Assembly: GCA_905178155.1 (NCBI GenBank) | Contig: CAJINV010000013.1 | Coordinates: 2,112,281-2,176,280, forward strand | Direction of reading: 5' to 3' | DNA length: 64,000 bases | Source of the DNA: Amoebophrya sp. A120 | Lineage: Eukaryota > Protista > Dinoflagellata | In this document: positions 12,164 to 48,702 of the stretch, piece after piece | Layout: each line of letters begins with the position of its first letter | Numbering within the stretch: the first letter of the stretch is position 1 | Translations under genes and position numbers: made by a program | The notes under the pieces: generated by a model | Seen by the model: only the letters and a program-made list of their open reading frames with translations | Database searches by the model: none | What the model was told of the DNA's origin: nothing

Positions 12164-14438
12164 TTATGTACCAGCAACGTAGAAGATGTAGATCTCTCTT
12201 GCAAAATTAACATGAAACGCCAACACTGAAACTACACGAGACCAACCTGGGCACAGCTTTTCCAAGACCGGGTTGCACCTGCCCGTGACCAGCCACCATC
12301 CCGCGACAAGAAAGAGCGCGATCACGCCCAACGCAAGGAAAAAGTTCCACCAGCAGGCCCCAAAGTACTTTAAGTGGCAGGTGAACGCGAAAAAACCGCA
12401 GACCGCGCTGCACTCCCCGTCGCCGTATTCCTTCGGGTCCATTTGCTGGGCGTTGGTCTGCCCGCGCTGCTGGCCGAGGGAAGATTTCTCCCGGGTCTGC
12501 AGCACCGTGAAGGAGGCTGAGCGGGAGTCGAGAAGTCGGCCCTTCAAGTCCAACAAATTCAACGTACACTCCGCAGCCAGCTCCTCTTTGCTGTTGGCCA
12601 TTACCTGGATTTCCACCACCCGCTTCTCCTCAAACCTTTCGAGAAACAGGGCGGGAACGGGCGCGGGAGTGATGCCCGTGCTGCACATGATGCCGAGGGA
12701 AAATTGGGCGCGGAAGTCAGACTCCGAGGTGATTTTGGCTTCCAGGGTGCCCGCGCCGGAGAAGGCCTGATAGAGTTGGCGCGAGTCGTTGTCGAAATTG
12801 TATTTTTTCATCTTCTTCAATATGCATCCGATTGTAAACTTCTAATATAGACAGGCGCCATAGCAAAATCAATATCTTTCGCAACAGAAACAAATGATCC
12901 TATTGTGTTGTAAATCCGAGCCCCGTAACACTTACCTCGAAGTTTTTCACTTCGACACTGTAGATTTTCGCCTTGCCGATGCTAGAGACGAATTTCAAGG
13001 AGTCCGCCTTCAGCTCCAAGCGCACCATCGTGGTCTGTCTTTGCTCGTCTAGCGGGCAGACGAAATACTCGTCCACAATGTACCCGGCATCGTCCACCAC
13101 CTGTGTCCCCTCCATCAACCCGTCGCAGTACCGGCTGACGAAATACAAGGGCTTCTGACCGGATTCGTCCTGCGGGTCGTAGTTCTCCCCCACCCGCTGC
13201 GTGTCCTCCTGGTGAAAGTTCTCGATTTGGTTCTTCACACAACTCCCCACCGGGCGCTCGCACATCTCCGACTGGTACTTGAAGGCGGCCCAGGCCACGC
13301 CAATCCGGTCGCAGGTCTCGCCGGACAAATCAAAAAAAGACTTGTCCAGCAACATCGCGTACCGCAAATGGTGCGGGTACAGTAGCACCCGCGGATGGGG
13401 GGTCAGCTTCCCGCCGCCGTCGAAAAAGCGGTCGGGCACCACCAGGTACTGCTGCTGAAAATTGTTCGGCGGACGAGCGGTTGCCAGGTCGCCTGGTGAG
13501 CAACAATTTTGATCTCGTAGCGTTGTTCAGTTCTATTATTCAATAATACCTCTGCATGATCCATGAGATGTAAATTCAAAAGCTAGAAATTTCTTCAACC
13601 TAGTCCCCTTGTAATATTAGTTCGTCTTACCCGTCAACTCCGCAACGACGTAGTTGTTCGAGGAGATGGGGTTCAGGTGCGAGATCGTCAAGTTCTGGAA
13701 AGACAGATCTTGGTGCTGCACCTGGATGTTGATATTGTACATCATGATAGGCGTTTCCACCTCGAAGCCCGCGTACCACAAGCTGTCCGGCTTGATGCAG
13801 TGGTAGGACCGCGACAGGCTGTCGATTAAGTCGCCGCAGTCCACTCCGCCGCGGTTCCGCGTGTTCTCGATAAACCCGCCCGGCGTGCACATGCAGCAGA
13901 ACCCCTCGGAGTACTTCATGTAGTTCCCGCGGCTGTCCGTGCAGATCCCGCAGGTGGCGCCTTGCCCGCCCACGTCGTCCGTGCAGGACGCGGAGGTCCC
14001 GTAGTGCTCGACCATCCGGGAGGGAATCTGCTCCAGGTAGCGCAGCGGGTACTTCCAGTACGACTTGGTTTTCGACCAGGTGATCTTCAGCGGCGTTTTC
14101 AGCTGCTTCTCGTCGTTGCTCACCGTGATTTCCAGGGCCTCCGTGCCCTGCAGCTGCGCCTGCTCGATGGAGAGCAGCAGGGTGACTTTCTCGTCGCAGT
14201 CCAGCGTCTCGCTCGCGGACGTTTTGTCGCACATCTCCAGTTTGGATTGCGCGAGCAGGGACGCCTTGGCGTGGCGAATCAGGTCGTTGGAGAAATGGAA
14301 AATGGCAGCGAGTGGTAGAATCAAGTAGACAGTCGTGGTGGTCCGCCCGAGGTGGCAGCTACAACCAAACGGCTGCGCGCTCCAGAACGACCACATCTTC
14401 TTCCGGTAGTGCCGTGGCCGCCGCATCTTCAGCAACAC
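12164..14438 (-). CDS. HAP2: HAP2/GCS1 gamete fusogen (class II fusion protein), 3 exons
   Basis: GFCCMC, YHCIKPDSLWY and the HAP2-GCS1 motif CDRIGVAWAAFKYQSEMCERPVGSCVKNQI; C-terminal Cys cluster and TM helix; canonical GT-AG introns at ~13493-13630 and ~12768-12936. Confidence 0.93.
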
Positions 14439-15058
14439 CGCACTTTGTTCGTCTTCGTCTTCGTTCCCAAATCAATGCTGCATCAGAACTCTGACGATTG
14501 AATAATATTTTTGATGACGCGAATACAATATTTTGCTCAAAAATCTCCTCGTCGCTCTCGTGGAAGGTCTGGTTCGTCTTGGTCCTCGTTCTCGTTCTGC
14601 TCGTCTACTGAGGTCATATATCAGCACAGCCGTCGTTGCATTTCAATTTCATTCACCTTTTTATCGCTTTCTCCAAGTAACTTTTTTTCGCTTTTCCACC
14701 AAGCCGTTGCAGATTCTTATGCTACATCATGAACAGCTCACTTACTTTCATGGAACCCTCGATCCCACTCCACATCACTTCGAGCGGCGGTGGGGACTAC
14801 TTTTCCTCATCTGATTCGCACCAGGAGCACCGCGCGTGTGCTCAAGATGCTTCCATCTCTGAACCGGATCTTCGCCTCAAATCACCGAAGAAAAACTTCT
14901 AGTTCCTGTATAGTACTAAGTTGTCTTAGCTATGATCTATCACGCCCTTGTTCTTTTCCTCACATCGTACAAACAAAGTTCCACATAGCACCAGAATTGA
15001 AATTCTCACTACTGTACCAACACCGCCTGTCACGGTCCTAAAGACCTCTACCCAGTGC

Positions 15059-15614
15059 TATGCATTGCAAAAGTATCGTACTAGTTAAGTAGGCATTGCA
15101 ATACAAGTTTCCAAGCTCGAAAAAATCTTGCACCTTTTAACTCCTCGTTGCAAAATGACCGCAAAAACCAGAAAAACCGCCTCCCTACGGGTGAGGAGCG
15201 ATTCGTAGGCCGCAGAACGGCTGAGGCAAAGAAAACAAGTCGTGCAATTTTTGAAAATTGGGCAGCGTCTGCTGCTTGCGAAATGACCGCAAAAACCAGA
15301 AAAACCGCCTCCCCACGGATGAGGAGCGATTCCTAGGCCGCAGAACGGCTGAGGGAAAGAAAAAAAGTCGTGCAATTTTGGAAAAGTGGGCAGCGTCTGT
15401 TGCTTGCAAAATGACCGCAAAAACCAGAAAAACCGCCTCCCCACGGGTGAGGAGCGATTCGTAGGCCGCAGAACGGCTGAGGCAAACAAGACAAAAAAAT
15501 CTTGTTAAGTACAATGGTGTTAATGCGGATTATCCCTTCTAAAAAGAGAGGGACTGGTAATGCATGACTGCAACGACTTTTAGTACTACGAATACGATAC
15601 TTTTGCAGAGGATA
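15059..15614. mobile_element. IR element family A (3 x 128-bp units), apparently intergenic or UTR
   Basis: Same TIR and units as 11322; TSD AGTGC/AGCGC (4/5). Confidence 0.85.
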
Positions 15615-15712: not shown

Positions 15713-18700
15713 TCACATCCCCGGTTGCGCGACGATGCCCGGCGCAGCACCGGCCCCGCCGTCCACCAACCCGGGTTGCTGGACCACAATTGCGGCCCCG
15801 CCTACCCCCGGCTGCTCGATCACGGCGGTGCCGTCGTTGCCGCTGACCGCCAGCTTCGGCGGTGGGCCGTAGTGAAGGCGGAGCCAGTGGATCCCGTCTT
15901 CCGACAACGCGCCGGATAAGCCGATGATGGCTTCCTTCCCACCCACGTTGTTCCTCGCCAGGTCAAACGCCTCCAGGCTGGAAAAGTCCTCCTCCAGAAA
16001 GTTCGACCCCTCGAACCGGCCCAGGTTGGTTTGGAACCCCAGCTGCTGGCAGAGCTGCGGCCACCCGTGCAGCGTGAAGGCGCCTTTCATACTCGTCAAG
16101 TACTCGTGCGGCTGGCACTGCACCTCGACCTGTCGCTTCGACTCTGGTGACCCGGCGCACCGCGCCGGAAAACTGCTGTCGACCCGGGTGTTCTCGTCTT
16201 CGGCGACGAGCTGGATGCCGCAGGGCTTTTGGGTCTCCTCCTCCCCGCCCTCGACGAAGATGATGATCTTCAGGAGCTGTTGGAAATTTTGTTCTTTCGG
16301 GAACGATTGGGACAAGTCGTGAGTGTACACATCACACTACATTTTTTGCATGGCAAATTCAAATTATCTAAAACTTTCATCTTCTCGTCCAAAATCCTAT
16401 ACCCTCTGTCCCGAGCCAATCGCACAGATATCGCAGAACTTGTCGCCGTCACCGGTGTTGGTGCCCACCATGGGACCTTCCGTGGGTCCCGCGGGACTAA
16501 CCACGGGCTGCTGGATTATCGGGCCGTTCGGATCGGTCTTCCCAGGGTCATCCATGATAATCACCTCCGGCCCCACAGCGACTGCCGGCTTCTCCTCTTT
16601 TTCTCGTATGAGGCGGAGAGACGAGGAGAAGATGGGTACAAAACATGATAAACATCCACAGAGAGACATGCTCGTCCTAGAAAAAATCCACCACAGTCTC
16701 GATTGGTGTATTAACATCATGATGTCATGGCGGATGCAAAAAGAAAGAAACACGTTGTGATGTGTTGAAAAAGTTATATTTATTAATTGCTGTGAACTAC
16801 ATCAAATGTAGAAGCTGAGCACCAACTCCTCAAAATTATCGGTTTTCATATTCTTAGGCTTGATTTTGTCATCGTGTTTCTTCTGGATTCGGTTCGCCCG
16901 GTACCACATACACAGCTCCATCAGCACGACAATTATCGTCATCACCATCGCCTATCCTATGTAATAACGTCCCCGCCCCATGGTCAAGATGGAAAATCGG
17001 CTAAACAAATCCACAAGCTTTGGCCGTTTTGCATGACAAATTTGGACTCGTAGCGTAGTGCTGTTTGAGGTAGTTCAGCAGCATCACAGATCTAGTTTAT
17101 CATGCTGATTGGAGCATGACAAATTCCAAAACACGACTAGAAAAAGCTTCTCATGAGGCTCCGCATGAGAAACATTCTCAGCATGCAGATTTGCAATTAC
17201 AACTATGTGGTGGGGACGTTTTTAAATACGATATCGCCGTCAGGTTGTTCGACGCCACCCCGCTGATGCCCTCGGCGAGCTTGTGAATCGTGTCGTTCGT
17301 GTATGAGAGTGCACAACTCCTCTTCCCCCTCATTTCTTTGTATATGTCAAATCCTATCTGAGGTGAGCCTTTTGGCTGTGCTTGCATGACAAGTTCTGGA
17401 AGCCCAAACTGCTCTATGCTTTGTGCGCGGATTTGTATATCCAGAGACTGCATTTTTGAGGTGGTTTCTGTTGCTAGAATTGCGCTGCAATTGAGGGGGA
17501 GGGGGAGTTGTGCACTGTCATATCGTGTCCGGGTCGGAGCAATTGTAGTCCTTGACTTCCTGGAAGAAGTCTTGCACGCTGTCCGCCACCACAAAGGCCA
17601 CGATTACGAAGGGCAGGACCAACAGCTTGCACACCAAGCCGACGTACTTACGAAACTTTTCCATGTACTGGTACTCTTCGTGTCCCTCCCCGGGGAACAT
17701 CGGCAAGTCGTACTCCAGCATGTAGTTCATGAAGAACAGAATGGTCAAAACCAAATTCCCGACGGTGTTCAAAATCGAGAATACCAGCACGACGAGCTGA
17801 AAGGTCACGATGTCCTCCACCGGGTTTCGCCGGTTCTTCACTTTCTTCCGTTCCACGCCCTTCTTCACGCATTCCTTGTTCCAGAAAACCTCGGGCATCT
17901 GCGTCAGCCGCCACGTGTCACTGGTCGACGGTTCAAACTCGACACAGGTGCCTGAGGATTTTGTTTTTGGTAATTTTCAATAAGTGGTCCTGCATGACTA
18001 CAGAGCGGCGGTCCTTTGCGAAGATGCAATACGACCGCACAGAAAGGACCATCGTTTAAACAGTCCATGTCCACTTCGCCAAATCAACACTATGCATTGC
18101 AATAAAAGCATCGTACTAGAAGGCCTTGCAATACAAGTTTCTAAGCTCGAAAAATCTCGCAACTTTTTTTGTTGAAGCTGCTGCTTGCAAAAAGACCGCA
18201 AAAATCCGAAAAACCGCGTCCCCACGGGTGAGGAGCGATTCATACTAGGTGGCAGAACGACTGAGGCAAAGACGAAAACTCTTGCAATTTTTGAAAATTG
18301 GCCAGCGCCTCATGCCTAGAAAATGACCGCAAAAACCCAAAAAACCGCCTCCCAACGGGTGAGGAGCGATTCCAAGGCAGCCGAACGGCAGAGACAAAGA
18401 AAAAAAAACTTCCAATTTTTGAAAATTGGCCAGCGGTTCCTCTTTGCAAAATGACCGCAAAAATCCAAAAAACCGCGTCCCCACGGGTGAGCAGCGATTC
18501 ACAGGCGGCAGAACGGCTGAGGCAAAGACGAAAATTCTTGCAATTTTTGAAAATTGGGCAGCGTCTCTCTTCTTCAAAAGGACCAAAAAAACCCAAAAAA
18601 CCGCCTTCCCGCAATTGAGGAGCGATTCCTAGGCGGCAGAACGGCTGAGGCAAAGACAGAAAAATGTTAGCATGGAAAATGGAATTTGTAATGCGGATTT

Positions 18701-21210
18701 TCCCTGAGAGGGGGATTCGTGATCGTGATGCATGCATGACTGCAATTACTACGAATACGATACTTTTGCACCATCTCCGAGTTGTACCTGACCCTCCATT
18801 CTGATTACACCGCTGTCTGGCGGAATTGTGCAGGATTGCCGTGCCGCTGAACCCGGAGTATTGAGCTGGAGTCAGTGCGTTGGTGTACAGGGGCCGCGCC
18901 TTGTCACGGTTCCACTCGATCCACCGCACGTCAGAGTGGTGGCACTTTTGCTCCTCCGACCCACGTATGAAATGCAAAGAAAAGCATCGCGCGAGTAGTG
19001 TTAAAGAAATTTTTTATTATCTTTATCGCGTAAAAAAATTTGAATTGTTCCACGAAAAAAATAAATAAATAAAACTTCCACACCAGGCACATATAATCCC
19101 GGAGCCGGCATGCCAGAGGACGGCAATTATTCGTAAAAATAAGCGATACTTTTCATCAGCGGAGGATACCCAGCACGTGGGGGTTGTCGTAGCAGGGCTC
19201 CACCCCCAGTTCCACGACTGGCGTGGCCTTGTTCCAGCTGTGGAACTGCGTGAACTGCGAGGCCAGCGTCTGGCGGAACGCCTCCGCGTGCGCGCGGTCC
19301 CGCGTGTAAATCAGGACGTAGTTCCCGTCGAAGTTGCTGGTCGTGGAGCTCTGCGCGGCGGTGGGCGCGACCTGCCATCCAGTGGGGAGGGAGGAATTCG
19401 TGCTTCCACCAGCACTCATGTCGAACAAATACACCCCGTACACGGGGCAGTCGTTCGCGGTGGTAACGCAGTACGGCCGCGACACCTTGCCCTCCGCGCC
19501 CACCGACCCAACGGAGCAATCGTACGGTTTGTCGCTGGGACACCCGTCCAGCGCGTGGTCGACGGGCCGGTCGATCGCCGGGATACCCGCCCGGGCCACG
19601 CAGATCTTATCGCAGGAAAAAAGTGTACACAGTTACACACCCTGACGCAAGACCAGCAAGACAGACAACCTCTGTCATGCAGGAAATGCTTTCCAGCCTC
19701 ATTTCATGCGAGTTTTCCTTTAGAGTCTGCGCAATACATTAAGTTTTCTTTGCTATACAGAAACTTTGTGATGCTGAAACTGCAAGAAATGCGTAACTGT
19801 GACACTAAAATCCTGTGATAGATCTTCTTCGACCTCCAGTAGTAGATGACCGCCCCCGGCACCACCGGCGCAAATTGGTTGCAGCCGTGCTGCACCTGCT
19901 CGCCGGAACAAGAGCCTTTGTTCATCACGTAGTGCCACGAGTAGGTCTCGCACGTGGTTTCCTCGATCTCGTTGCCCTGCTGGTCCGTTCGCGTGCGCGT
20001 CTTCTCCACGCACCGTGCGTTCCAGCACTCGCACCCCGTGTTTACCCCCTCGTAGTTGCGCCAGGCCTTGCCGCCGAGCTGCGGGCTGATGTCGTCGCTC
20101 ATCCGGCTCCAGGACTGGAAGGCCTCCTCGTACCCGGCCGGGCAAGCGACGCTGGTACTGGATATGACCTCCTCAAACGTTACAATCTCAAGCGTTACAA
20201 TAGAGTTTGGAAATCAGTGATGCAAGAAGTGCATGATCTAGCCAAGTCTCATAGGACTGCGCATGACAAGTTCCGGAGCCCCAAACCGCACTACAATCTG
20301 CCGAAATTTGTCTTGCAGAAAGTGGAGTGGTCTGCGAGTCTGTCATGCTCATTATGCAACACAAATTCCAGATTCTATTGTAACGTTTGAGATTGAGATT
20401 GTAACGTGTGAGCAGGCCATACTGGACTTGTCCAGGATCTGGATGTCGTTGACCGGCTGCAAGGACCAGTTGCGCAGAATGCCGATCACCTCGTTCGTGC
20501 TGTCGGCCAACTCGATGTAGGCCAGGATGGCAAAAATCATGATCACGACCGCGTAAACGTATCCACAGTGAATTTATCTTTCCCGTACAACTACACCTAC
20601 AAATGAAATACTAATGCGGTTTCTGCATGATAAAGCTTGATGCCTTCAAGCCGATTGCTCAGCATGACAAGTGGTAGCCTCCAAAGTGGCGAAACTTGTG
20701 ATCGACATCTCGTATGAATGTGTACGAGCGGTTGCGGTGGTGGAAATTTGTATTGCATAAAATGGACTGGAACACCATGAACCAAAACAGCACCATTTTC
20801 AGCTTCCCCGGTTTTTCCTCCTCGGAAGAGGCATTAGAACCCGCGTCCGACTGGTGCACGCCCTCGGCGTAGAAGGGGGCGCTGCGGGCTTCTTTCGTGA
20901 AACTTTGTTCCTTCGTACTCGTAATATGTAGATGGTTCTGGTGCGGGACAGAACTGAACCGCCCGTCGGTTCGCAACGCGGTGGAATCGCTTGACCATGA
21001 CCTCAACTGGACCTCCGCGCCCCCGGTGGTCAAGTTTCCACAATGTGCGACGGACATACTTGCCACCCTGTCGGCACTGCCGGAAGATGTTGATGAAACT
21101 TCCGTCCTTATACTTCTTTTGGTTTTAATATTGCCAACAGACGTTGCGCACTTCCTAGGGTCAAGCCCAACCGTGGTCAACCTGTCAGGAATTCTCGCTT
21201 GCTCCTCCAT
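15713..21210 (-). CDS. Multi-exon membrane protein: TM, Cys-rich ectodomain, further TMs, probable C-terminal jacalin-like lectin domain
   Basis: In-frame joins: QSI|YAVV, DKSS|TSVA, SKKI|CVAR, GILR|GSEE, GSG|TCVE (GT-AG 17952-18787), DPDT|NDTI, NLTA|MVMT, KPKK|KEEK, QR|CDVY (GT-AG 16337-16402); GDGDKFCD...GIQL...EYLTSMKG...LGFQTNLG...IIGLSG resembles a jacalin beta-prism. Confidence 0.7.
16607..16850. mobile_element. Decayed TAT...ATA introner
   Basis: TATGA/TCATA ends, decayed TSD TCTCG/TTCTT; removal is in frame. Confidence 0.55.
16953..17233. mobile_element. IR introner
   Basis: ~30-bp TIR TATCCTATGTAATAACGTCCCCG.. / ..TGGGGACGTTTTTAAATACGATA; perfect TSD TCGCC; frame restored. Confidence 0.9.
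17302..17522. mobile_element. IR introner
   Basis: TIR TATGA(G/C)AGTGCACAACTCC..CCCCCTCA; perfect TSD TCGTG; frame restored. Confidence 0.9.
18091..18774. mobile_element. IR element family A (4 units) nested inside a canonical GT-AG intron (17952-18787)
   Basis: Family A ends and 128-bp units; right end eroded, no TSD seen. Confidence 0.8.
18966..19158. mobile_element. Decayed introner with family A-like ends
   Basis: AAAAGCATCGC / GCGATACTTTT; removing 196 bp gives GILR|GSEE. Confidence 0.55.
19608..19820. mobile_element. IR introner
   Basis: TIR TATC(G/A)CAGGA..AGTGT..ACAGTTAC; perfect TSD GATCT; frame restored. Confidence 0.9.
20163..20421. mobile_element. IR introner family B
   Basis: TIR TATG(A/G)CCT(C/G)CTCA(A/C)ACGTTACAATCTCAA; perfect TSD CTGGA; frame restored; best pair GT-CA. 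Confidence 0.92.
20560..20759. mobile_element. Decayed TAT...ATA introner
   Basis: TSD AAACG/AAATG; removal yields a continuous TM helix MVLFWFMVFQSIYAVVIMIFAILAY. Confidence 0.7.
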
Positions 21211-21680
21211 TCTTGCACTCTTCCTCTTTTAAAAGAGAAATGAAGCTACTCCGGTTGTGGAAGGTAGTGCTGCATTCTGCCAATTTAAGTACAATTCCGA
21301 TTTCGTCCTTCGATTGGTGCACGTGTAAGACGTATGGCAGAAGCTCAAACGACGCCAATGGAAAGAGACGAAAAAGACCCACCACACACTCAACTCAAGA
21401 AGAAGATGAAGAAAGCAACATCGATATAAGTATAATAAGTTCTTCGAAAAAATAGCGTCTCCGTTTTGCAGCGAATTTTCATGCACTCTCTTGATGATGA
21501 TCATGGTCATTATGATTTCGTGCATCTCCGACCACTTACTGCGTGACCTAGTGCAGCCTCTGTACAAAAACACTTTCCGCTGGTGCATCCTCTACTTCCA
21601 CCTTGGGTATCCTACAATGAGTTACACCGTCCGGCGTCGTTCTCATTTTGCAACGAGGATCCCGGGATGCGTACCTGTCG

Positions 21681-24615
21681 GTGTCGCCACTATCACGTCC
21701 TTCAGCGAGTTTTTGTATTCACGGCCCTCAGTAGTGCCGACAAATAATTAGGTGATGAGACAGCCCCAGGCGGCCGATGTCAGTTGATGCTGGTTTGCGT
21801 TTCTGTTGTGGTTGGTTGTTGGCTGCGGAGTGAGGAGTGAGATGTTGAGAGATGTACTGATGTGGGCCGAGAGTGGGAAGACCCTAAAGCTCTTAGATGT
21901 AGCCGCGCGCGCGGCAAGTGGATGATGACTTAGTTTGAAAGTTGGCGTTGATAGCTGTTGGCGTATCCTGATGTAGTTGAAAAGATGCCTCCAAAGAAGA
22001 GGAAGCCCGATTTCGGGGCCCCGAAGGCTGTGTCGCTGCAGAAGGATTTCACCGAGTCGAGCCATGTAAAGCTCTGGCTCGAGTACAAGGAGGCCGCCGG
22101 CCTAGTTGGGCAGACTGCGATCGATGACCTCCGTGAGTTCGCGGAGTACCTCCTCTCAGCTGAGAAGCCCTACAAGTCGACAAATGTCTACTTGTCGGCC
22201 GTGGTCGCGTTTGAGCTGGCGCGCAAGACCCTCGCGCAGGGTGTATTTTTCGAGCGGGAGTACAGTAGCCTCCGCGACTCGGTAAATAAGGAGCTGGCAC
22301 GCGGGGGGCTAGTCCCAACGGGGGCCCCGGTGTTGAGCGTGCGCGCGATGATGAAGTTGAGCCAGCAGGAGCGTCGCGGCTTTGTGTTGCCCCTCATGTT
22401 GGGGTGGCGTGACAGCAGCCTGCAAGCTCTCACGGTCGGCCACGTCGATGTCGTAGGTGGCGCCGTCCTGGTTACCTGCCCGAAGGACAAGGTCCGCACC
22501 TCTGTCAATCGGGTGGTGTCGATCCCCTGCTGCTGCGACGATAAGTGCCTGAACCACCTCTGTGTGCTACATGGCTGCTCGTATTTGGCGCCAAAACCGG
22601 GGGCGGTTTTCGAGGAGATCCTTCCACGGGTGCACCCGCAGGCTACCACGCACTCGCTGCGGAGGACGCTTGCTGTCCAGGTGCGACTTTGGTTGGTAGA
22701 CCTTGGGTATGCAGAGCTGGACGATGTTCCGCGGGCGGTGCTCGGGAGGATCAATACCCATTTCGGATGGACCTCCCGCTCGCTGATGTTCGAGCGATAC
22801 TCCCGTGATTTTGCGCACTACGCACCGGACTACCGGCTTCCGATCAGGCGGCTGGTAGAGGGGTTCATGGCCGGGTAGACGGGTTGCCCGCCATTGTCGA
22901 ACTAGGACAGCGAAAATCTCGACGATGTACCGGAGAAACATAAGGCTGTAGCAGTTTCTGATGAAGTAGTATTAGCAGTGGTAGGCTGAAGTAAGTGAGC
23001 AAGTACATATTTAGTAGGTTGATCCTTAGTGCATAGCATGGAGCATATGAAGAGTAAGCTGTATGACCATACGCAAAAGCACAGGGCAGCAGCCTGGTGC
23101 GCCCGAGGCGATGGGCCTGCTTTCGCCCTAGTTCTTCTATACGCATCCTGGTGTTCGATTGATCCACTATGTTCCTGTTTTTTGTGGACTGTTGGTATGC
23201 AGAGGTGTGGTGGAGATGTCGTCCGTAGTACAGAGCCAAAGTAGGTAGTCGCGCAGCCGTCCTTTGTGGCCGGGGCGAGGTCAACGGACCCACCCGGACG
23301 CTTTGGATGCCTGTCCCTGTGTATCTTCTTGTGCCTGAAGACGGAGGCGCGAGGACCTGCCTATAAATATATGATGTTGCGCTGTTGATGATTGAAAGTA
23401 CGCTCATGGTGCGTTGCGATGCAAAAACCATACGCGTGAGCGTGTGCCTCTCTACTCCCACCCTGATTTGCTGCCTCGCAGCGTGTTAGCTGACCTAAAG
23501 AGACAAGCACTGATCGCTGATCTGTACTAGTCAGTGCATCACATCGCGCACGAAGTACAAGATGCCACCCAAGAACCAGGGCCACGCCAATAAAGGCGCC
23601 AAGAAGCCTGCGAAAGGCGGCAAGCAGCCAGTGATGAAGGCTGCCCCTCCGGCGATGAAGAAAGTTGCGCCGAAGATGAAGAAAGTTGCGCCCACTGTGG
23701 CGCCCAAGGTGAACGCGGCCGCAAGTGTTGCAGTGGCGAGCGGAGCTGGTTCGAGCAAGGACCCGGCGCAGCATAGCAAGCCGCCGCTTGCGCTGGCCAG
23801 CGAGCCCCAGACGATGCACATCACGACGGGAAAAAAGGAGATCTCCCCGGAGGAGCGTGCCCTGCTGCTGGGCGAGCTGATGCTGGTTGACTACTCCATG
23901 AGCTCCCCGCTGGACCATGTTCTGCATGAAATTCCGCAGGACTCCTTGGCGCGGAAGTTCTTCAAGTTCCACCAGATGCTGAGTATTGGGGCGGTTGCTG
24001 GCGCCGATTGCTCGGAGGACCGCCACTACCTGGCGCTGTCGCAGCTGGACAAATCCTCGGTGAGGCAGCTGGTCAGTGCCGCGATTAGCGAAAAGCCGAA
24101 TCTGGTGCAGACGGTGAAGACGCAGTTTGCGGCCAAAATGAAGCAGAGCAGCGCCTACTACCAGATCTGTGACCAGACCGCCTGTCTGCAGTTGTATGGG
24201 ATGCTGCAGCCCGGCGTCTCTTTCGAGTTTTTGGCCGCATCCCCCCACTCACTTGGACTTGTTAGACAGCTGGGTAGAGAGTCTCTCGTAGTTTCTTTCT
24301 TCGGATAGGGTTTGCTGGTGTGAGCTGTGCTGGCGCGAAGATGTTCTTCCGCCGCGCGCGGACTTCCCCATGGGGGTTTACGCGTCTTGCGCCGCCGATC
24401 CTGCATGCAGCAGGCTTTGCGACGGCTGACCCTACGGGGGGTGATTTCGAGGCGCAGCACCTGCGCTACCAGTTTCAGTTGATCGCGCCAGAGAGCCAGC
24501 TGCCTGGTAGCAAGCTCTCCGCGGATTTCTTCCGGCGTGTGAAGGAGTACAAGTCCCACACAGACGCCCACCACACAGTGTCGCCACTATCACGTCCTTC
24601 AGCGAGTTTTTGTAT
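21681..24615 (+). mobile_element. Tyrosine-recombinase element bounded by exact 38-bp direct repeats (Crypton/DIRS-like, no RT seen)
   Basis: GTGTCGCCACTATCACGTCCTTCAGCGAGTTTTTGTAT at 21681-21718 and 24578-24615; two plus-strand ORFs in an otherwise minus-strand region. Confidence 0.8.
21985..22878 (+). CDS. Tyrosine recombinase / phage-integrase family protein
   Basis: Catalytic pattern LGWR(R)...PKDK(K)...HSLRR(HxxR)...HFGW...ERY(Y); NLS-like start MPPKKRK; intronless. Confidence 0.88.
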   Translation: MPPKKRKPDFGAPKAVSLQKDFTESSHVKLWLEYKEAAGLVGQTAIDDLREFAEYLLSAEKPYKSTNVYLSAVVAFELARKTLAQGVFFEREYSSLRDSVNKELARGGLVPTGAPVLSVRAMMKLSQQERRGFVLPLMLGWRDSSLQALTVGHVDVVGGAVLVTCPKDKVRTSVNRVVSIPCCCDDKCLNHLCVLHGCSYLAPKPGAVFEEILPRVHPQATTHSLRRTLAVQVRLWLVDLGYAELDDVPRAVLGRINTHFGWTSRSLMFERYSRDFAHYAPDYRLPIRRLVEGFMAG

Positions 24616-24622
24616 CAAATAA
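23562..24622 (+). CDS. Element-encoded protein with basic K/A/P/M-rich N-tail (ORF 23562-24308, possibly extended to 24622)
   Basis: AKKPAKGGK...MKAAPPAMKKVAPKMKKVAP followed by a predicted helical region; a 35-nt GT-AG intron (24274-24308) or a -1 frameshift would join ORF 24320-24622. Confidence 0.55.
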
Positions 24623-24666
24623 CTTCTTTCTTCGTTATGTTCAAGAATCATGATTGCCCTTTATGT

Positions 24667-26817
24667 TTATCTCTTCGTGAAATTCCCAAAAGGCCGAGCG
24701 TGTAAGACTTCCGCGACAGAGTCTGGGTCGCCAAAGAAGCCAACTTTGGAGACGGTGCCGGGAAAGTCAGGATCTTCGGCGTACCGCACGAGCGCTCCCC
24801 GTACCCTGAGAAGTACTCGCAGCAAATTGTCATCCGCGATGTCCGCGTCCGCAACAACATTTCCATTCACGTATTCGTACATGTACACGAGACACGACTC
24901 CCCACACATTCTGTGAAGCCCTGACGGCGCCTCGAAGACAGCTCGATCTGCAGAAGTCGCAGGCTCCGCGGCATAACTAAGAGAAAGACCTAGAGCGAGC
25001 CCTTCTATGACGCCTGACCATTCTGTTCGAGGGCCGTCCGCTGCGGGAGGAGGAGGTGTTGTAGATTTCATTGCGCCGTGCGGGTTTAGGAACTCCGGCC
25101 GGTGCGTGACTCTGAACATCCTGTACTGCGAGTGCGGGGCGTCCAGGTCTGGCGTGAAGCGGAGGAGAAACGGGTCCGCATTAGTCAGCGAGCTCCAGCG
25201 GCCACGCAACCCCGTCTTCCTTCCGTCGGAATCCACCTCGTCCAAGTCAAAGAGCGCGGTGACCGGCCTGACCAAAGCTCCCGGCGGCGGGTTTTCTAGC
25301 AGCCTCGGGTCAACGGCGAGTCCATCGGCTAACCGCTCTTCCGCGTCGAACTGGACATCGATCTCTCGAAATAACCGCTCCTCATGTAGGTCCACTATAG
25401 GAGTAGAGAATATTCGAGACCGCGCGGCTTCGACCAGCGCCTGCGCGCGTTCCCAGATACTGGATGAAGCATCGGGCGAGCGGCCGCCCGTCCTCGCGGG
25501 TTTTTCTTCTTGATCATGATGAGCGTGATGTTTTACTAAGCGCGCGCTTTTGAAACTCTGGTCCAGGTAAGAGAGGGGGGCGTTCCACGGGACGTAGTAG
25601 GGCCGCCCAAATACGGGGCAGAAGGCCGGCGGATTGCAAAGAGGCTCAGGACGAAGCCACGGGTTCCGGTGGAGGACATCATCGGACAAAGAGGACGCCG
25701 GCTCCCCAGCGCTGCACACACATCCTAGCAGGTCTCCGACTTTCACCACTGTGCGCTGCTGTTCTTCCTGTTCTTGGTGTAGTTGTGCGTGTTCTACTTC
25801 CTTCTGGTTCATCTGACCGGAGGTGGTCTTCAGGACAGATCCAGCAGTTTTTTGTACAAAGTCTGACGACTTAAGAAATTCATCTCCGCTTTTCTCTTCA
25901 ATTTCTGCCGATGATGCTGCAGCTTCTGACGCCGTTGAATTCAGAAACGAAGATTTTTCGCCATCAGCCTGGTGCAGCTCTTTGACTTTTACTTTTTCTA
26001 GTTGTGCCACAGTAGAAAAACTTGATGCCGCTTCCTTACTTGACGACGTTGCTGAACTTGTTCTACCGCCCCGTAGGTTCGGACGGTGATGCGGTGTGTT
26101 ATTTTCAAAAGGAGCTACATGATCTTCGCGATCCTTTTCAAGCGGCCGGTCGTGCGGTTCTGGCTTTTGTTCCGGCTTCTCAGACGCGACGTACTCCGCG
26201 TCCTCATCTTCAACAGGAACCTCGTCATCACCTTCATCCTCGCCGTCCACGCCTGTTGTTGTAGGAGGAGTTACTATCATGCTTCTAGTGCCTGCTGCCC
26301 CAACTTCAAGAGCGGCGCGCCCGGGCGTTGGCGCAGCGGCCTGGTTGGTGGGTGTTGTACTAGTACTCCCTTCGACGACGTCGAAGTAAAGTGCATCTTC
26401 AGGCGGCAGAGGAGTTCTGTAAGAACTTGTTGCGCGTACAGTTCTCGTACTTTTTCCTTCCCCTGCAGGAACATCGTCGTCAAAGAAGTCATCGGCCGTT
26501 GCTGGAGCTCCTGGATTCGTCCGCTCATCATGCCTTGGCAGCGTCTGCTCTTTGTGTAGTTTCTCGTTTGATGATGTCCTCGTGCTGCTGGTGGTTGTTT
26601 CCCGGCCAGCCTGCGTGTCGACGTCGCTTCGACTAGTTTCCCGAGTAGTCGCTCTGGTAAAGAGTAGCGTCTTCTGGTGCGGCGCACCAAGGAAGAAAAG
26701 GAGGAGCAAACAGAAGCGGGGGCGTGTAACAACGACCACGGTGGCTGTACAGGCGCTCGCCCCGGCACCAGCGCCGGCAGAGGACGTCGACATCCTTTCC
26801 CAGCGGGGGGCCAACAT
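24667..26817 (-). CDS. Hypothetical protein, 716 aa, hydrophobic N-terminal segment, low-complexity N half
   Basis: Long uninterrupted ORF; RPRFCLLLLFFLGA signal/TM-like stretch. Confidence 0.65.
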   Translation of the reverse strand: MLAPRWERMSTSSAGAGAGASACTATVVVVTRPRFCLLLLFFLGAPHQKTLLFTRATTRETSRSDVDTQAGRETTTSSTRTSSNEKLHKEQTLPRHDERTNPGAPATADDFFDDDVPAGEGKSTRTVRATSSYRTPLPPEDALYFDVVEGSTSTTPTNQAAAPTPGRAALEVGAAGTRSMIVTPPTTTGVDGEDEGDDEVPVEDEDAEYVASEKPEQKPEPHDRPLEKDREDHVAPFENNTPHHRPNLRGGRTSSATSSSKEAASSFSTVAQLEKVKVKELHQADGEKSSFLNSTASEAAASSAEIEEKSGDEFLKSSDFVQKTAGSVLKTTSGQMNQKEVEHAQLHQEQEEQQRTVVKVGDLLGCVCSAGEPASSLSDDVLHRNPWLRPEPLCNPPAFCPVFGRPYYVPWNAPLSYLDQSFKSARLVKHHAHHDQEEKPARTGGRSPDASSSIWERAQALVEAARSRIFSTPIVDLHEERLFREIDVQFDAEERLADGLAVDPRLLENPPPGALVRPVTALFDLDEVDSDGRKTGLRGRWSSLTNADPFLLRFTPDLDAPHSQYRMFRVTHRPEFLNPHGAMKSTTPPPPAADGPRTEWSGVIEGLALGLSLSYAAEPATSADRAVFEAPSGLHRMCGESCLVYMYEYVNGNVVADADIADDNLLRVLLRVRGALVRYAEDPDFPGTVSKVGFFGDPDSVAEVLHARPFGNFTKR

Positions 26818-27993
26818 CCTCGGATGGAATAAATAACAGCAGCGGTGGAGTAGATGTCTTCCTCCTAGTGTCTGCCGTGCTACGACGACCAGCAGGGAAG
26901 CTACATTAGCACATCGCAGTGGTTTTGTTGTTGCGGGAGCGAGGGGCGGTTCCGCAAGTAATGTTCGAACATCCTCACGCTACATAGAACATGTTTTGTC
27001 TCGATTCTTGATTCGCATTCCTCCCATTCTCAACTCCCTCCGCAACTACATTGGCCTCGGTTCATGCACTCTCTTATTTCACTCAAAGTCGCGCTCCTGC
27101 CTCACACGTCGTAGTTGCAGCAATCACGAGTCCGATTTACTATATTCAAAGCCGACAAAACTGGAACAGGCTTTCGCCTGCTGCAACCCGTACCATGTCG
27201 TCTGTTTCTCCGAGAAATTCTTGGAAAAAAGGAACAGCCCACCAGAACACTTTTTGCACTCATCTCACACCAAATTTCGCCGTCGTGGTAACGAGCCTTC
27301 AGTTTGCTATGTAATCCTTTGTTCCGTACAACTTGCTCGAGTACTAAATGTGCGCAAAAGTTTATCGACCGTATGTATTCCGGGCTGTTGCACAGTTCAT
27401 GTAGCAAACGAAGCTCCAGGAATCTTACGCATCGGACGTCATGATGCCACTGCTTTCTAAGTACAAAAATGTGAAGCCGAAGTCCCTATTCAGGAACGAA
27501 GATCGCGTGTTGCGTCTCGTCTTCAAGTTTCATTTTCACCTCGAACAAGCACCGAAATCCACCGTACGAGATTTTCACCTCGATATTATTGTGAAGCATA
27601 CAAAGTCAAATGATCGATCTAGAGCTAAAAACGGGAAGTTAAGTATGTCAAGCTCACACGTATACGGTGGCAAGCCAACATAAACATTTTGATTATCATG
27701 ATGAAACTGGGGTATACTTCCGCTTGAAGCACCTGCGTCAACTTCATGGAACGCATCTCGGATAGAGATCGTATTCATTTTCATCATGCCACGTGCATTA
27801 TGCTACGAAATAGATCTAATCTATCACATCAAAGGTCGTGCACGACCCAAAATTATCTCCAACTACCGCAATTTATTTTTCTCGATCTCCGGAACGAATA
27901 CGAAAAGCTACGCCATATGTTCTTGCAGTACACCAAACCATCAATATTAGTAAGTTCTGGCTTTAAAAAAACCAGTAGCAGATCCATTTCTAG

Positions 27994-30900
27994 CAGAAGA
28001 GTTTATAGAATCCCGGGTCCCAGGGTAGGGAGGACCAGGGAGGAGATTTTGCTATATAAAACCCAAAACCGAAAACCGAAAAATCAGAAAAACCCCAATC
28101 GCGGCGGTATGGTGCTCTTTAACAATTTGCGCGAGTTTTCCATGCGGAATATACTCAATCCTCATGGTAGTGCGATGTCGGGAATGCGGCGACAAAAGAC
28201 AAAGCTATAAGGCGACGCGATGGCAAAGGCAAAGCTACCCTACAAACGGACCGCGCAAAGCTTTTCAAAAATATTTCAACAATAAATTTCCAGCACATGC
28301 ACAAAATTTGCCCCTGATCCACATCCAACCGCCCCGGGCTTTGGACTGTTTTCTCCCCCGCGGGTTAGGCACCCTGCCCGCATTAATTCCAAGGTCTTTA
28401 CTCCCGTGCCACGCCGTCATGACTAAATAATGGCTATGCCTATTGAGTAATGTTCTGCAGGACACGGCGGCGCGGCGACCGATAAAGGAAAAGCAAGACC
28501 AAGACCCACGGCCCCTCTGGACCCGAACTACGCGAGAGGGCCCAGAGAAAGCCGCGCGCGGCAGGCCGGGCACGGCCCGCCCGGCTGTCACAACGGTGCC
28601 CATAGCATGGGCGCGCACATGGGGTGGATGCCCGGGCCGAGGCCCACTGCCGCCCAACTTTTGGCGGGCCCCACCCCTGCTCTTTTTGCCAGTCTTCTCA
28701 TTAGGGCGGCGGCATGCAGCTTCTCTGCTCCATCCTTCCTCGGGCCCTCGCCGGCAGTTCGGCCGCCGAGCTGGTTTGCCTGCGTGGGTGCGTGCCCACC
28801 GCCATTGCGACCGACCGGGCGAAGTCAGTCAGTCCAGTGGGCAAAATAAGTGGCGCCACCCTTCCTGCGGGCCCCTTCGCCCACGCACGCCTGTCCTGGG
28901 GCCGGCCCCTTTTTCGTGCCCGCCCGCGCGGGCGGGGCGCGCCACGCAGGCAGTTTCTGGCTAGGGCGCGGGCGGTACACCCGCACGCCGAGTGCGTGGG
29001 ACACACGCACGGGCCGGGCAATACAAGGAGCGAAGGCCCGGGGCCCCCGGCGAAATGGACGGGCGCGCGCCGGGGCGGACGGAGGCGGGCCAACAGGCCG
29101 CCTGGCTGCCCCGAAGCACAAGGCCGGCCAAAAGACTGCCATGGGGCGGCGCGGAGGGCAGGGCAGAAGCGAAAGCCGCCGGGGCGGGCTCGGACGGCAA
29201 AGGGCAGACTGGCCCGCCTCCCTGGCCGCGCTCTGCGGCGCACCCTTTCCCCGGGGCGGGCCAACGCCTCCAATATGCGGGCGCGCCTCCCGTGCGGCGG
29301 GCCCGGGCAGACGCACCAACGCGGAGGCCGCAAGGCGGGCCCCCCCGTTCTTCTTTTTTCTGGAAAAACTGGAAAGAGCACGGCAGGGGCCTCCCGAATA
29401 TCTCCCCGAAGCCTTCCCAAAATTTTCCAAAGCCAATAGAATGAAAAGCCAACGCAGAAAACACCCGGCGCCCCCTTGAAATACTTTCTTTCGGAAGCAC
29501 TCACTGCGCTGGGCCGCGGCGGGCCAAAGCCGCCCGGAGCCATTCCGGACCCCATCCCCAGCGAGCATAGCTACAAAAGAAGCCCGCGCCTATGCCGGGG
29601 CGGGAATGGAACACCACCAGCCCCCCTAGCCCGCCCGAATGAAATAGCCGCCGGGGCCTTGGGGCGACCGCGGGCGGTCGCTCGGGTTGGGCCGGGCGCT
29701 GCGCACAAGGCCGCGGAGGCCAGAGAGACGCTTGCCGCTTGCGGCCGGCCGCAAGAAGCCTCCGGGCTTCGCGCGCAAAAGCCAGCGGGCGCCGGGCCCC
29801 CGGCGCGCGGCTGTTCTTTCACTCTGCAACAAAAAACCGGCGGGGGGGCCTGGCCCGGGCAACTTCTAACGACCCACCCAAAGGGCGGCGCGGCCCACCC
29901 GGGGTGGCGCAGGGGCCAAAGCCCGGGCCCAGTCAAAAGCTAGCGCAGGGGGGGCCTTAGCCCCCGCCCCCGAGTTGCTTCGCCCGCGATCGCCAAAGAG
30001 CCGCAATACCCTACAGCACCAACGGACGCACCCACTGGCGCCGCGGCAAGGTCAGCGGGAGGTATTTGCGTGCGCCCGCTGCCATCCTGGCTCCTGGGCC
30101 AAGTCGCCTCCCCGCCGGCCTGCCATTTTGCCCGGTCGCGGGCGACCTCACTCGCGGGACGGACCTCCCGAAGGCTGGCCTGCAAAAACCGCGCGGGGCC
30201 CCGCCTTGCCACAACGCCCCCGCCCCGCGCTGCTCTGCCAACATCGCGCGCGCGGGGCGCTGGTGACCCCAAAAGGGCCACCGACACAACAAAGGGAGCG
30301 GGCGCCCCTGGGCATGGCGAAAAGCGCAAGACCCACGAAGGGCAGCCCTTTCGGTGTTTGTACTTAGTGCCAGGCGGCTCCAAATAAAATTGGGCCCGGC
30401 GGCGCGCCACGCCGGAGTGTCTTCCCAATGCCAAACGCGACGCGAGCTGGGCAGCCGAGGACACGGCACGCACAAACGGCGCCCCGGCTGGCGGGCAACA
30501 GACACGCCAAGAGCTTGGGGCTTTGGAAACTTTTTGGAAAGTGGGTGGGGAACTTGCGCTACCTAACAGGGGTCGCCACTTGTGCGCCCCTTGCTCTGCG
30601 CCATGCTCTACGAACAGAGAGCGCGTCTGGATTCAGCTCCCGGGAGCGAAGTCCAGCCTTCCTCCCTCGGACCCAACTCCCGGCGAAAACTGCACGGCGG
30701 CGCGACTTTTGGCGCCTGAGTTTTATGGCTATGGCGCTCGCCTGCGTGGCAGCTTGCCAAAGTCAACGGCTGGCAAGCTGTAGCGCACAAATGAGGCTGA
30801 GGGGCCAAGGAAGTGCGAAGCTGTTGAAGTGGCTTTCTCAACTCTCAGTAGCTTTATTCTCCTTCGTTTCTGCGTTACAAATGCAGAAATGAAGGACAAA

Positions 30901-32511
30901 AGAAACGCGAAGAGCTTTCTCCTGTCCTTCGTTTCTGCGTTACAAATTGCCATCATGATTGGCAAGCTGTAGCGCAGAAATGAAGGGCAAACTATTGAAG
31001 TGGCTACTCCAACTGTCCTCCATCGGAAGAAAGTTGAAAAAGTAGCCACTTCGATAACAACTGCATGACAAATTGCCACAGTAGTGGCAGTTGTTGAAAT
31101 TGAACAACAACACAAACGCGCTCAAATTATAGCCACTGCAGCAAGAATTATCTGCGTCGTTGTTCAGTTTGCAACTTGTCATGCAGCTTTTGATGAAGTG
31201 GCCACTTCAACTCTCCACCAGAGTGTCGTGAGCAGCTGCGTGACACGTTGCAAACTGAAGCTGGACAACGACGCCAATTGTTGAAGTGGCTATGTCAACA
31301 ATTTGCGTCGTGTGCGAACAAAAATTGTGAAAGTGGCCACTTCAACAATTCGGGTTCTGCGAATTGTTGAAGTGGCCACTTCAGCAATTCGGGTTGTGCA
31401 AAATGTTGAAATGGCCATTTCAACAAAACCCGAATTGCTGAAGTGGCCACTTCAACATTTTGCGCAATTATTTCAACAATTTGCACAACGCAAATTGTTG
31501 AAGTAGCCATTTCAACAATTTGCACAACCCAAATTGTTGAAGTGGCCACTTCAACAATTTGGGTTGTGCAAAGTGTTGAAGTGGCCACTTCACCAATTCG
31601 GGTTCTGCGAATTGTTGAAGTGGCCACTTCAACAATTCGGGTTCTGCGAATTGTTGAAGTGGCCATTTCAACAATTCGGGTTGCGCAAAATGTTGAAATG
31701 GCCATTTCAACAATTCGGGTTCTGCGAATTGTTGAAATGGCCATTTCAACAATTCGGGTTGTGCAAAATGTTGAAATGGCCATTTCAACAATTCGGGTTC
31801 TGCGAATTGTTGAAATAATTCGGGTCGTGCAAAATCTTGCAATGGCCATTTCAACAATTGCAATTCGGGTTTTGTTGAAGTGGCCACTTCAACACTTTGC
31901 ACAGCCCGAATTTTTGAAATGGCCACTTCAACAATTCGCAGAACCCGAATTGTTGAAGTGGCCACTTTCACATTTTTTATTTTTGTTCAATTTCAATAAA
32001 TTTTCACTATTGTGGCAATTTGTCATGCGCTTGCTATTCAAATGGCTACCTCAACTCTCCGCGAAGTTGAATTAGCCACTTCAACACAAGCTGCGTGACA
32101 CGTTGCAAACCCAAGCCGAACAACAACAAGAACGCAAATTGTTGAAGTGACTACTTCAAAAATTTGCACAGCGCAAGTTTTTGAAATGGCAACTTCAACA
32201 GTTTGCCTGTGCGAATTGAAGTAGCCACTTCCATAACAACTGCATGGCAAGTTGTAAACCGAACAACAACGCAAACTGTTGAAGTGGCTACTTCAGCAAT
32301 TTACTGCGTCGCTGTTCAATTTCGTTACGCAGTTGTTATTGGTATGGCTATCAGAAAGCTGAAGGGGCCTTGGCCCGAAAGTTCGCCATGCCATCGGTGA
32401 ACACATTTTGAAAAAATGCCCGATGCTTTTTCTATATAGACGCGAACGCTCCTCCCTGGTCCTCCCTGGTCCTCCAGGGTCCTCCCTACTCCCTGTCTAT
32501 AAATTTCTCTG
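27994..32511. mobile_element. 4.5-kb TIR element with 6-bp TSD TTCTAG, no recognisable intact transposase
   Basis: Left CAGAAGAGTTTATAG..GTAGGGAGGACCAGGGAGGAG..CTATATA mirrors right TATATAG..CTCCTCCCTGGTCCTCCC..CTATAAATTTCTCTG; TTCTAG at 27988-93 and 32512-17. Confidence 0.8.
30820..32300. repeat. Array of a 28-bp palindrome with ~39-bp period (core 31323-31968)
   Basis: AATTGTTGAAGTGGCCACTTCAACAATT perfect at 31610-31637, next unit at 31649; spacers CGGGTT(C/G)TGC(G/A). Confidence 0.92.
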
Positions 32512-45620: not shown

Positions 45621-46344
45621 CAGATTAGCGCGCACGAGAGGATTAGAACCGAGTCGCTCTTCCAGTTCGTGCTGTTGAGGTCATCTTCTTTGAGTGTAAG
45701 AACCACCTTGGTTTTCTGTTTCCGATCTTATGAAATATACCGGTAAGGAGCCAATGGCAAAAAAATGATTCTCCAGTGCTCTCTCAGCCTCATCTACCTG
45801 GTACATCGTCAATACGGAATTCACATAATTTTCAAGAAACTCAACGCCCCTTGCCTCAGGCACATGGACACCATCCTTCCCTAGTGCACTCTTTTACAGT
45901 GCCGGGAATTCAACCTCTGAAAGATTTATATTCTGCTGCGAAATGGGTACTTAGACATCAAGAAAGGTCACGAGAGCAAGCGAAACGGGCTGGAGAGAAG
46001 CGACCTGCAACTGTGCCACAAAGACGGAGGGTCAATCTCAACCCTCAACATCACTCCACTCCACTGGATAACTGCTAGCATGAATGCTTTGTCCTAACCA
46101 CGACGAGACCCGAAAAACGAGAAAAGCATGAGAACAGCAGAGCATCGCTTGACCGTCAGGTTTTTTGCCGAGCTGAAATACCCGGAGTGGAGAAGCAGTT
46201 CGCCACCACGAAAAGGTTTGCTAATTTTCCTGCAGAAAGACATCGAAAAAGCTTCTCGACACAGCATTCAGAGTAGTTGATGTGGCAACAACTTGCGAGT
46301 GTCATCTTGCGAAATCATCGTTGTTACGAGATCAGCGCATTGCT

Positions 46345-47996: not shown

Positions 47997-48702
47997 TTTG
48001 AATGTGTGGAGTGTTCGATGTCAAACTTCTGCTTTCGCAGGAAATTATCCGTGTACCCTGCGTGAAATGAATTGAAAAATCAATTACTCTTGAATTGAGG
48101 CACGAACTAGAACCCTTTTCACAACGGAAGGGGCCAGCACTCAGCACTTCCAAATCAACCATACGTACCATCGATGTGATATTTTTACACAAGTTTTATG
48201 TTAATCCTCAAATAGTTGACAGTAGCGTAGATCCAAGTGTTACGAGGATCTCTGGGTTTAGATCCTCACTTTAGATCTGCATTTGGATCTTCATGACTTG
48301 GAGAGTAAGAACCTGGAAAGATCGGTCAGAATCGCACGAGGATCAGAGTTGTTTTCACGTGTCGGTGTTTCAGTTTCTGCAAATTTAAAGAAGCCAATCG
48401 TCCGGCAATTTCAGAATATTTCACCTGTGCGCACTCGAAGTCGACCCATGGAATGAGGCGAAGCCGTGCACCACAACAGAAACAGCGCCATATGCTAGTG
48501 GAAGACGCCGCATAAAGAGCGACCCGGCAGATCGAGGTGCCGCTTCTCGCCTTTTCGGCGTTATCTTTCGTTGTCAGTGAAGTACACTTCAACTCTGCTG
48601 TCAAGCATCGTAATTTCGGTTGTCTTTACCAAAGGTAAAAGCTGCTAGAACAGCTGCCGATCAGACGTTCTTGATGTGTAGTTGAGTTTAAGGTTTACAT
48701 GT

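Follow-up and report, generated by a model that had tools for sequence, protein, structure and literature searches.

A compact element with a predicted Cre-like tyrosine recombinase and unusually long end repeats in Amoebophrya sp. A120

We analysed a 64,000-nucleotide stretch of the genome of the dinoflagellate Amoebophrya sp. A120 (contig CAJINV010000013.1, positions 2,112,281 to 2,176,280, forward strand; hereafter, the window), which carries at 21681–24615 a compact element encoding a tyrosine recombinase (YR). This is a real element, with a predicted Cre-like YR from a family that was not found in the literature searched, and with an unusually long end repeat of 38 bp. In the explanation that we favour, and that we hold to be about as likely as not, it is a two-gene DNA element of Crypton grade that lacks reverse transcriptase (RT), the 38-bp repeat is its attachment (att) core, and its own YR integrates and excises it as a circle.

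The recombinase and its family

The first gene of the element (21985–22878, + strand) starts 266 bp inside the left repeat and encodes a protein of 297 amino acids (aa) that combines a core-binding with a catalytic domain and contains a CxC..CxxH cluster. An earlier note on this DNA had described an intact 297-aa YR with R-K-HxxR-H/W-Y residues and a start resembling a nuclear localisation signal, and that description holds: the protein begins with MPPKKRK, and R142, K169, H223-x-x-R226, W262 and Y272 are all present. Searches with this single sequence returned nothing under E 0.01 from Pfam, PHROGs, NCBIfam or PDB, and tblastn against phages and plasmids gave only matches at E 2–9. An early structure model based on two sequences was poor, with a predicted local distance difference test score (pLDDT) of 48 and Cre ranked first at E 1.3. 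A word-index search found one relative, 47% identical and labelled Amoebophrya sp. AT5.2, and two relatives with a large alignment. The profile of the window YR and the AT5.2 protein matched 170 proteins at E 0.001; from the 150 of these that were listed, 93 were chosen by length and combined with the two seeds into an alignment of 95 rows (A2).

Profile, model and fold searches as well as conserved residues point to a Cre-like enzyme. The 95-member profile matches Cre at E 5e-6, with R142 and K169 aligned to their counterparts in Cre. The final structure model has a pLDDT of 92; the top eight Foldseek rows for it are Cre or Tre, and VIA-align also places Cre first (Z 12.1, root-mean-square deviation 4.5, 235 residues aligned), with Flp at 6.0 and Ndc10 at 5.7. 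Identity to solved phage and bacterial integrases is only 9–21%. Among the aligned members, R142 is conserved in 95/95, K169 in 93/95, H223 in 81/95 (with Y in eight), R226 in 90/95, and W262 and Y272 in 91/95 each; 85 of the 95 have the complete set of six, and 69 the CxC..CxxH/C cluster. As modelled, the YR is a Cre-like enzyme that looks functional and has the full catalytic set.

Pfam searches over the 95 members at E 0.01 matched Phage_integrase in five and PDC10_C in one, and found DUF3504, GCR1_C and DUF3435 in none; 28 further long relatives gave one Phage_integrase match, one DUF5583 match and nothing else. No relatives of the YR were found on viral contigs (four protein scans and one DNA scan), on prokaryotic genome contigs (two scans) or, with profile A1, on metagenome contigs. 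When 21 relatives were looked up, the four with an organism name were all Amoebophrya (AT5.2 twice, A120 twice), and the remaining 17 were ENA, Logan, JGI and NCBI entries that had no name or were called 'hypothetical'. A rapidly built tree limited to rows 1–60 of the 95, with family members only and no named outside references, groups the window YR with two members, P0001 and P0002 (Shimodaira–Hasegawa-like approximate likelihood ratio 100).

Judged by sequence, the YR family lies outside the Crypton and Starship groups that Pfam domains mark, and it is likely an undescribed, new YR clade. Since it has 170 representatives, stays below the Pfam cut-off and is unreported in the Amoebophrya genome papers checked, it makes up a sizeable unannotated group. 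Here and below, statements about cited papers refer to the parts of their text that were available. Full-text literature searches, with Repbase and subscription journals outside their scope, found no report of an RT-less YR element, Cryptons included, in Amoebophrya or other dinoflagellates. The main text of PMC7789003 contains no recombin-, integrase or DIRS, and the text of one of its supplements no DIRS, crypton, recombinase or integrase; neither recombinase nor integrase occurs in the text of PMC12005148. In the introner table of PMC12130899, automatic Crypton flags stand on two Amoebophrya A120 families of small size, one of 304 and one of 1619 bp, but both have terminal inverted repeats (TIRs) and were finally classed as TIR DNA elements.

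The 38-bp repeats and the second gene

The left (21681–21718, + strand) and right (24578–24615, + strand) 38-bp direct repeats, which we infer to be the attL and attR cores, are exact copies of each other. They start 2897 bp apart, and the identity stops at 38 bp on both sides. When the 9-kb region was triplet-shuffled 100 times, no exact repeat exceeded 16 bp. The earlier claim of exact 38-bp repeats 2.9 kb apart is confirmed. No third copy occurs in the 64-kb window with up to 13 mismatches allowed, and blastn found no repeat besides the 38-mer in 21401–24700 at E 0.05. The right copy lies 52 nt beyond the stop codon of a flanking minus-strand open reading frame (ORF) of 770 codons that belongs to a multi-copy family.

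We also drew on eight public runs (X1–X8), compared as assembled contigs (31-mers; contig overlap of 30 bases, shorter than the 38-bp repeat); three further runs of raw RNA (X9–X11) contributed no reads. Contigs from X1, X4 and X6 branch at the left repeat, and the type of repeated sequence switches there. Outside the element, the flank at about 21553–21700 (bounds approximate) is a low-copy repeat with two to four diverged copies elsewhere in the genome, represented in X4 by contigs at depths 79.3 and 61.8 with a loose end behind 21700; in one of these copies the identity extends over the initial 20 bp of the core. Searches of this flank for tRNAs, Rfam families and unusual folding gave no signal. 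The flank copies stop at or in the repeat, and 39 bp inside begins a sub-terminal sequence (21757–21913, + strand) that is partly common to another single-copy locus: 21757–21786 is exact and 21859–21913 similar, with the X4 contig (depth 48.7) joining 21786 to 21859 and ending loosely behind 21913. That locus is likely a sister element. The 38-bp repeat is most likely the boundary of the element. As to the alternative left end near 21520 raised in the earlier note, diverged copies of about 21553–21700 do exist elsewhere, but no contig links them to element sequence.

Three further features near the left end were noted. Three adjacent bases at 21751–21753 differ from the window, X1 and X6 in X4 and X8 (sample S2), the sole difference seen in the element's own contigs; the X8 contig carries the other letters, and a sister locus was rejected as their source since they make up the entire X4 depth at that place (48.3 of 48.3). 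A 9-bp perfect inverted repeat (21563–21717) has one arm at the end of the left core and the other some 140 bp out in the flank, and so bounds the low-copy repeat; among 1000 random points, 31 did as well, and contigs from X1 and X6 pass through it unspliced. A 70-codon frame across the modelled empty site is unsupported as an exon, since the flank copy has a 10-bp gap and three of the four changes listed for it alter residues.

The second gene, ORF2 (23562–24308, + strand), starts 1016 bp ahead of the right repeat and encodes 248 aa with a Lys/Ala-rich N-terminus and no known domain (no significant match in Pfam, PHROGs, NCBIfam or PDB). A second ORF had been seen in the earlier note, and its product is likely an accessory nucleic-acid-binding protein. 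A candidate GT-AG intron of 35 nt (24274–24308, + strand; unconfirmed) would join ORF2 in frame to a candidate second exon (24309–24622, + strand; open frame 24278–24622) for a product of 341 aa, which would run through the right repeat and stop just outside. GC content at third codon positions downstream of this candidate intron is 0.71; none of the contigs is spliced here, and those of X1 and X6 cross 24274–24308 without a break.

The same layout, a YR gene followed by a basic ORF2, recurs in two metagenome contigs. A metagenome scan with profile A3, which represents a distant YR subgroup, yielded three loci (L001, L002 and L003) from 222 candidate stretches. L001 (2809 bp) has a YR gene of 867 bp, a gap of 506 bp and an ORF2 of 1086 bp (361 aa) with a basic start, and the contig ends 14 bp past the stop; L003 has a YR gene and then the start of a basic ORF. 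In both, ORF2 has the same place and a basic start. The two ORF2 products of the window and L001 match at E 0.054, with a local score equalled by 14 of 1000 shuffles and end-to-end scores at chance, which is no more than suggestive of homology. At 2690–2809 of L001, ORF2 ends in a Cys/His cluster, which is not a CX2CX4HX4C box, and the contig terminates in a short palindrome. An 8-mer from the L001 end recurs upstream in L002 (134–141), which would correspond to a unit of about 2.85 kb, though a chance match is possible, and L003 has a tandem repeat with a 149-bp period (1–278, 97% alike) upstream of its YR gene. Members of the YR cluster of L001 occur on contigs of up to 9 kb, so a larger autonomous form of the element may exist. 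No Pfam match to RT or RNase H was found in the 6 + 5 + 31 frames in and around the element and in L001 (frames of 60 aa or more inside the element), which agrees with the earlier note. The element has only its two ORFs, and no capsid, packaging or replication genes.

The length of the repeat sets this element apart from the eukaryotic YR elements compared. The terminal direct repeats of Cryptons measure 4–6 bp (PMC3212892, PMC13465315), those of Starships mostly 2–6 bp, with the longest, 6–16 bp, going along with targeting of repeated host sequence (PMC11162782), and phaeoviral insertions in brown algae have cores of 2–5 bp (PMC13236599). At 38 bp, the repeats here are over twice as long as in the eukaryotic YR elements compared, for which the Starship maximum of 16 bp is the highest value. 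With Cryptons the element shares a eukaryotic host, a YR as the sole recognisable enzyme, an optional second gene, end direct repeats, the absence of TIRs and the circle model (PMC3212892, PMC13465315, PMC9977147), but its repeat is 38 rather than 4–6 bp. Unlike CryptonA, CryptonF and CryptonS, its family has no DUF3504 or GCR1_C (0/95) and it has no TATGG or CAYCG terminus (TATGG is absent from the 38-bp repeat), and ORF2 has no C48 peptidase, DDE or helix-turn-helix match. In its presumed working it is Crypton-like, yet it is set apart by its long repeat and by the absence of the subgroup markers.

Other mobile elements resemble it in single respects. Starships also have the YR at the 5' end and direct repeats that mirror the target (PMC11162782), but the element lacks DUF3435, is 2.9 kb long and without cargo, is non-fungal, and has a 38-bp repeat and a target not recognisable as an RNA gene. 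In Ngaro, VIPER and SymbioDIRS elements, too, a separate ORF encodes a Cre-like YR, and the ORF next to it is poorly conserved and possibly gag-like (PMC8547959, PMC6681497, PMC5890265). However, Ngaro and VIPER carry RT and split repeats (PMC8547959, PMC6681497), whereas the present element has neither RT/RNase H nor A1..B1-A2-B2 split repeats or inverted terminal repeats with an internal complementary region, and is about half their length. Phaeoviral insertions differ in their 2–5-bp cores and in that the element has no capsid or replication genes (PMC13236599). Polinton-like viruses, virophages and giant-virus insertions differ in that it lacks capsid, packaging and replication genes, and no relatives were found on the viral contigs scanned. 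Prophages and prokaryotic integrative elements have long att identity blocks, and the element resembles them in the long identity block at both ends and in a recombinase gene beside one end, but here the site has neither a tRNA gene nor another RNA gene, no inverted binding arms were found, and identity to solved phage and bacterial integrases is only 9–21%. Amoebophrya introners have an 8–20-nt TIR, a 3–5-nt direct repeat and no coding genes, none of which applies here; no introner-type TIR lies inside the ends (the first and last 150 bp share 6–7-mers only), in line with the earlier note's description of the element as free of introners.

Integration model, public reads and rival explanations

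If the favoured explanation is right, the 38-bp repeat would be the crossover region on which the YR acts. Integration would be a crossover by the YR between the 38-bp copy on a 2897-bp circle and the same host sequence, and excision would be the reverse step, releasing the 2897-bp circle and leaving one repeat copy behind. ORF2 would provide a basic accessory protein with a role in directionality or DNA packaging. Integration and excision as a circle have been proposed for Cryptons (PMC3212892), and the same model has been reported for CryptonF, where clean excisions were seen (PMC9977147).

Contigs from three of the public runs hint, weakly, at the two products that recombination would leave. 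In X7 a contig with many errors connects 21709 with 24608, which is the form of an empty site, and in X8 a contig connects 24606 with 21711, which is the form of a circle; each is one base short in a run of five T. In X6 the left contig is unbroken to 21718, while the right flank, at depth 25.8, runs into the core and 24388–24585 is uncovered. As proof of excision, these joins were downgraded, given that the repeat exceeds the word size, that cover is patchy and that a transcript may end there.

A number of observations weigh against the favoured explanation. X7 covers only 15 of 30 bins and X8 11 of 30, and the junction contigs are unphasable across the repeat because the contig overlap of 30 bases is shorter than 38 bp; if drop-out leaves exactly one entry and one exit, half of such contigs would appear recombined. 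Since assemblers clip short dead ends, a transcript of the right-hand gene that ends in or just past the right repeat could produce the X6 pattern. X1 and X6 were judged RNA-like from their uneven paralogue depth, the lack of breaks where X4 breaks and the tool's own guess of RNA; element depth in them is 14.7 and at most 7.84, respectively, against 34 and 25.8 for the right flank. In X4, by contrast, depth is even and DNA-like (flanks 44.4, 40.8, 44.3, 39.2 and 41.9; element 42.1), and the ratio of the element to the right flank (42.1 to 44.3, or 0.95) corresponds to a single copy at near-full occupancy, so that X4 can contain few if any empty sites or additional circles. The left-over X4 depth for the core is about 94, equivalent to two copies, which leaves room neither for another identical target in that genome nor for a sister element sharing this core. 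Only one copy was seen with both ends.

The site itself adds to this. A loxP-like dyad or inverted recombinase-binding arms are absent in the attL, attR, attB and attP forms (131–290 of 300 shuffles score equally high), the window contains no tRNA, and Rfam gives nothing under E 1 at the site, which leaves the carrying of the 38-mer by the circle without an explanation. Folding at the site is not unusual (fold z 0.5 and −0.8). A long att core normally implies a conserved target; none is evident here, and the att interpretation is weak in that respect. With no tRNA, Rfam family, unusual fold or dyad at the site, the target is likely the 3' untranslated region of a low-copy host gene family. What the earlier note had proposed, a recently active element of a possibly new family that can excise as a circle of about 2897 bp, therefore survives in part: the family outside the Pfam-marked Crypton and Starship groups, the RT-less copy, the repeat as likely boundary and the layout in relatives speak for it, but recent activity and the circle do not follow from an X4 depth of 42.1 between flanks of 39–44 or from junction contigs that cannot be phased.

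The missing dyad, the missing RNA-gene target, the restriction of the core to two copies and the occupancy of about 95% would suit a YR transposon of Crypton type whose true crossover site is short. The 38 bp would then be a one-off duplication of the host target at insertion, made by break repair or by an enzyme of the long interspersed element (LINE) type that copied the element's RNA, in a copy that is now essentially fixed. The flank copy elsewhere that has the first 20 bp of the repeat argues that at least this part is host-like. We nevertheless regard such a duplication as doubtful: the short repeats of Cryptons reflect microhomology and not target duplications (PMC13465315), no poly(A) tail precedes the right repeat, and all three junction hints (X7, X8 and X6) would have to be artefacts. 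A different origin would be from a DIRS/Ngaro-like retroelement in which YR, a gag-like ORF and pol follow one another, the present copy being either a remnant without RT or a non-autonomous form. The 38 bp would then be a leftover of split repeats, and the true left end might lie near 21520. The diverged copies of about 21553–21700, the Cys/His cluster at the end of L001 ORF2, reminiscent of gag fingers, and the contigs of up to 9 kb with relatives of the L001 YR are in line with such an origin, as is the shuffled YR/pol order of Symbiodinium DIRS-like elements (PMC5890265). Moreover, dinoflagellate DIRS-type RTs fit Pfam poorly (PMC5890265), so that a blank in Pfam is a weak test for RT. Still, there is no RT or RNase H match and no remaining frame over 295 codons inside the element, the 38-mer is the sole repeat in its region and no B-A-B arrangement exists, no contig ties the flank copies to element sequence, and L001 has the same two genes and nothing else in 2.8 kb; we consider this origin unlikely.

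Another possibility concerns the RNA-like data and fits with either of the preceding origins. The element could persist in the DNA while host transcripts lose it by non-canonical splicing inside the repeat, as an intron of 2897 nt; it would then be an introner that carries a recombinase. In X6, which is RNA-like, the right flank is joined to the core without the right end of the element, while DNA-like X4 has it in full; the minus-strand core contains an AG-GA site; and over 60% of Amoebophrya introns are non-canonical, the longest reaching tens of kb (PMC7789003). Yet AG-G(T/C/A) is present in 580 of 1684 random 38-mers, the 8–20-nt TIR of introners is lacking, the site follows a stop codon, and transcript termination explains X6 equally well, so that removal as an intron seems very improbable.

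Genomic surroundings and implications

YR and ORF2 are alone in being a gene pair on the + strand among minus-strand ORFs: the long ORFs on either side, like HAP2 and the EF-1alpha-like ORFs, lie on the − strand, which confirms that the element opposes the host genes. The ORF on its right (24667–26979, − strand; 770 aa stop to stop) lies outside the element, belongs to the multi-copy family mentioned above and has no significant Pfam match; it is intronless, has diverged copies in X1, X4 and X6, and its C-terminal part is common to several diverged genomic copies. About 7 kb from the element is an exon of the gamete fusogen HAP2/GCS1 (13617–14471; Pfam E 3.8e-29). The region 46200–50500 has two tandem, near-identical genes about 2360 bp apart, which from their motifs we take to be EF-1alpha-like. 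A tandem array with a 39-bp period and open frames (31295–32075) adjoins a GC-rich block (0.60–0.70) without clear genes at 28200–31000. At 20163–20421, 15148–15480 and 18240–18680 are an insert bounded by inverted repeats in the left-hand gene and repeats with a 128-bp period at several places, introner-like in appearance. Gene order on one strand, inserts of this kind in neighbouring genes and the labels of the nearest relatives all point to an Amoebophrya-type parasite as the likely host.

Even if the repeat is a mere target duplication, a new Crypton-grade family remains. A further-reaching view, which we put forward tentatively and hold to be somewhat unlikely, is that these elements are a miniature prophage-like family in the nuclei of parasitic marine alveolates. 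They would carry a long copy of a host site, be integrated site-specifically by a new clade of Cre-like recombinases and be switched out, in some life stages by release of a DNA circle or else at the transcript level, restoring the host transcription unit. A 38-bp core would represent phage-style integration at a single site inside a eukaryotic nucleus, where, in the available text of the literature compared, eukaryotic YR elements recombine at 2–16 bp. A native recombinase of 297 aa with a long target would also offer a basis on which to develop genetic tools for dinoflagellates and the parasites that infect them.

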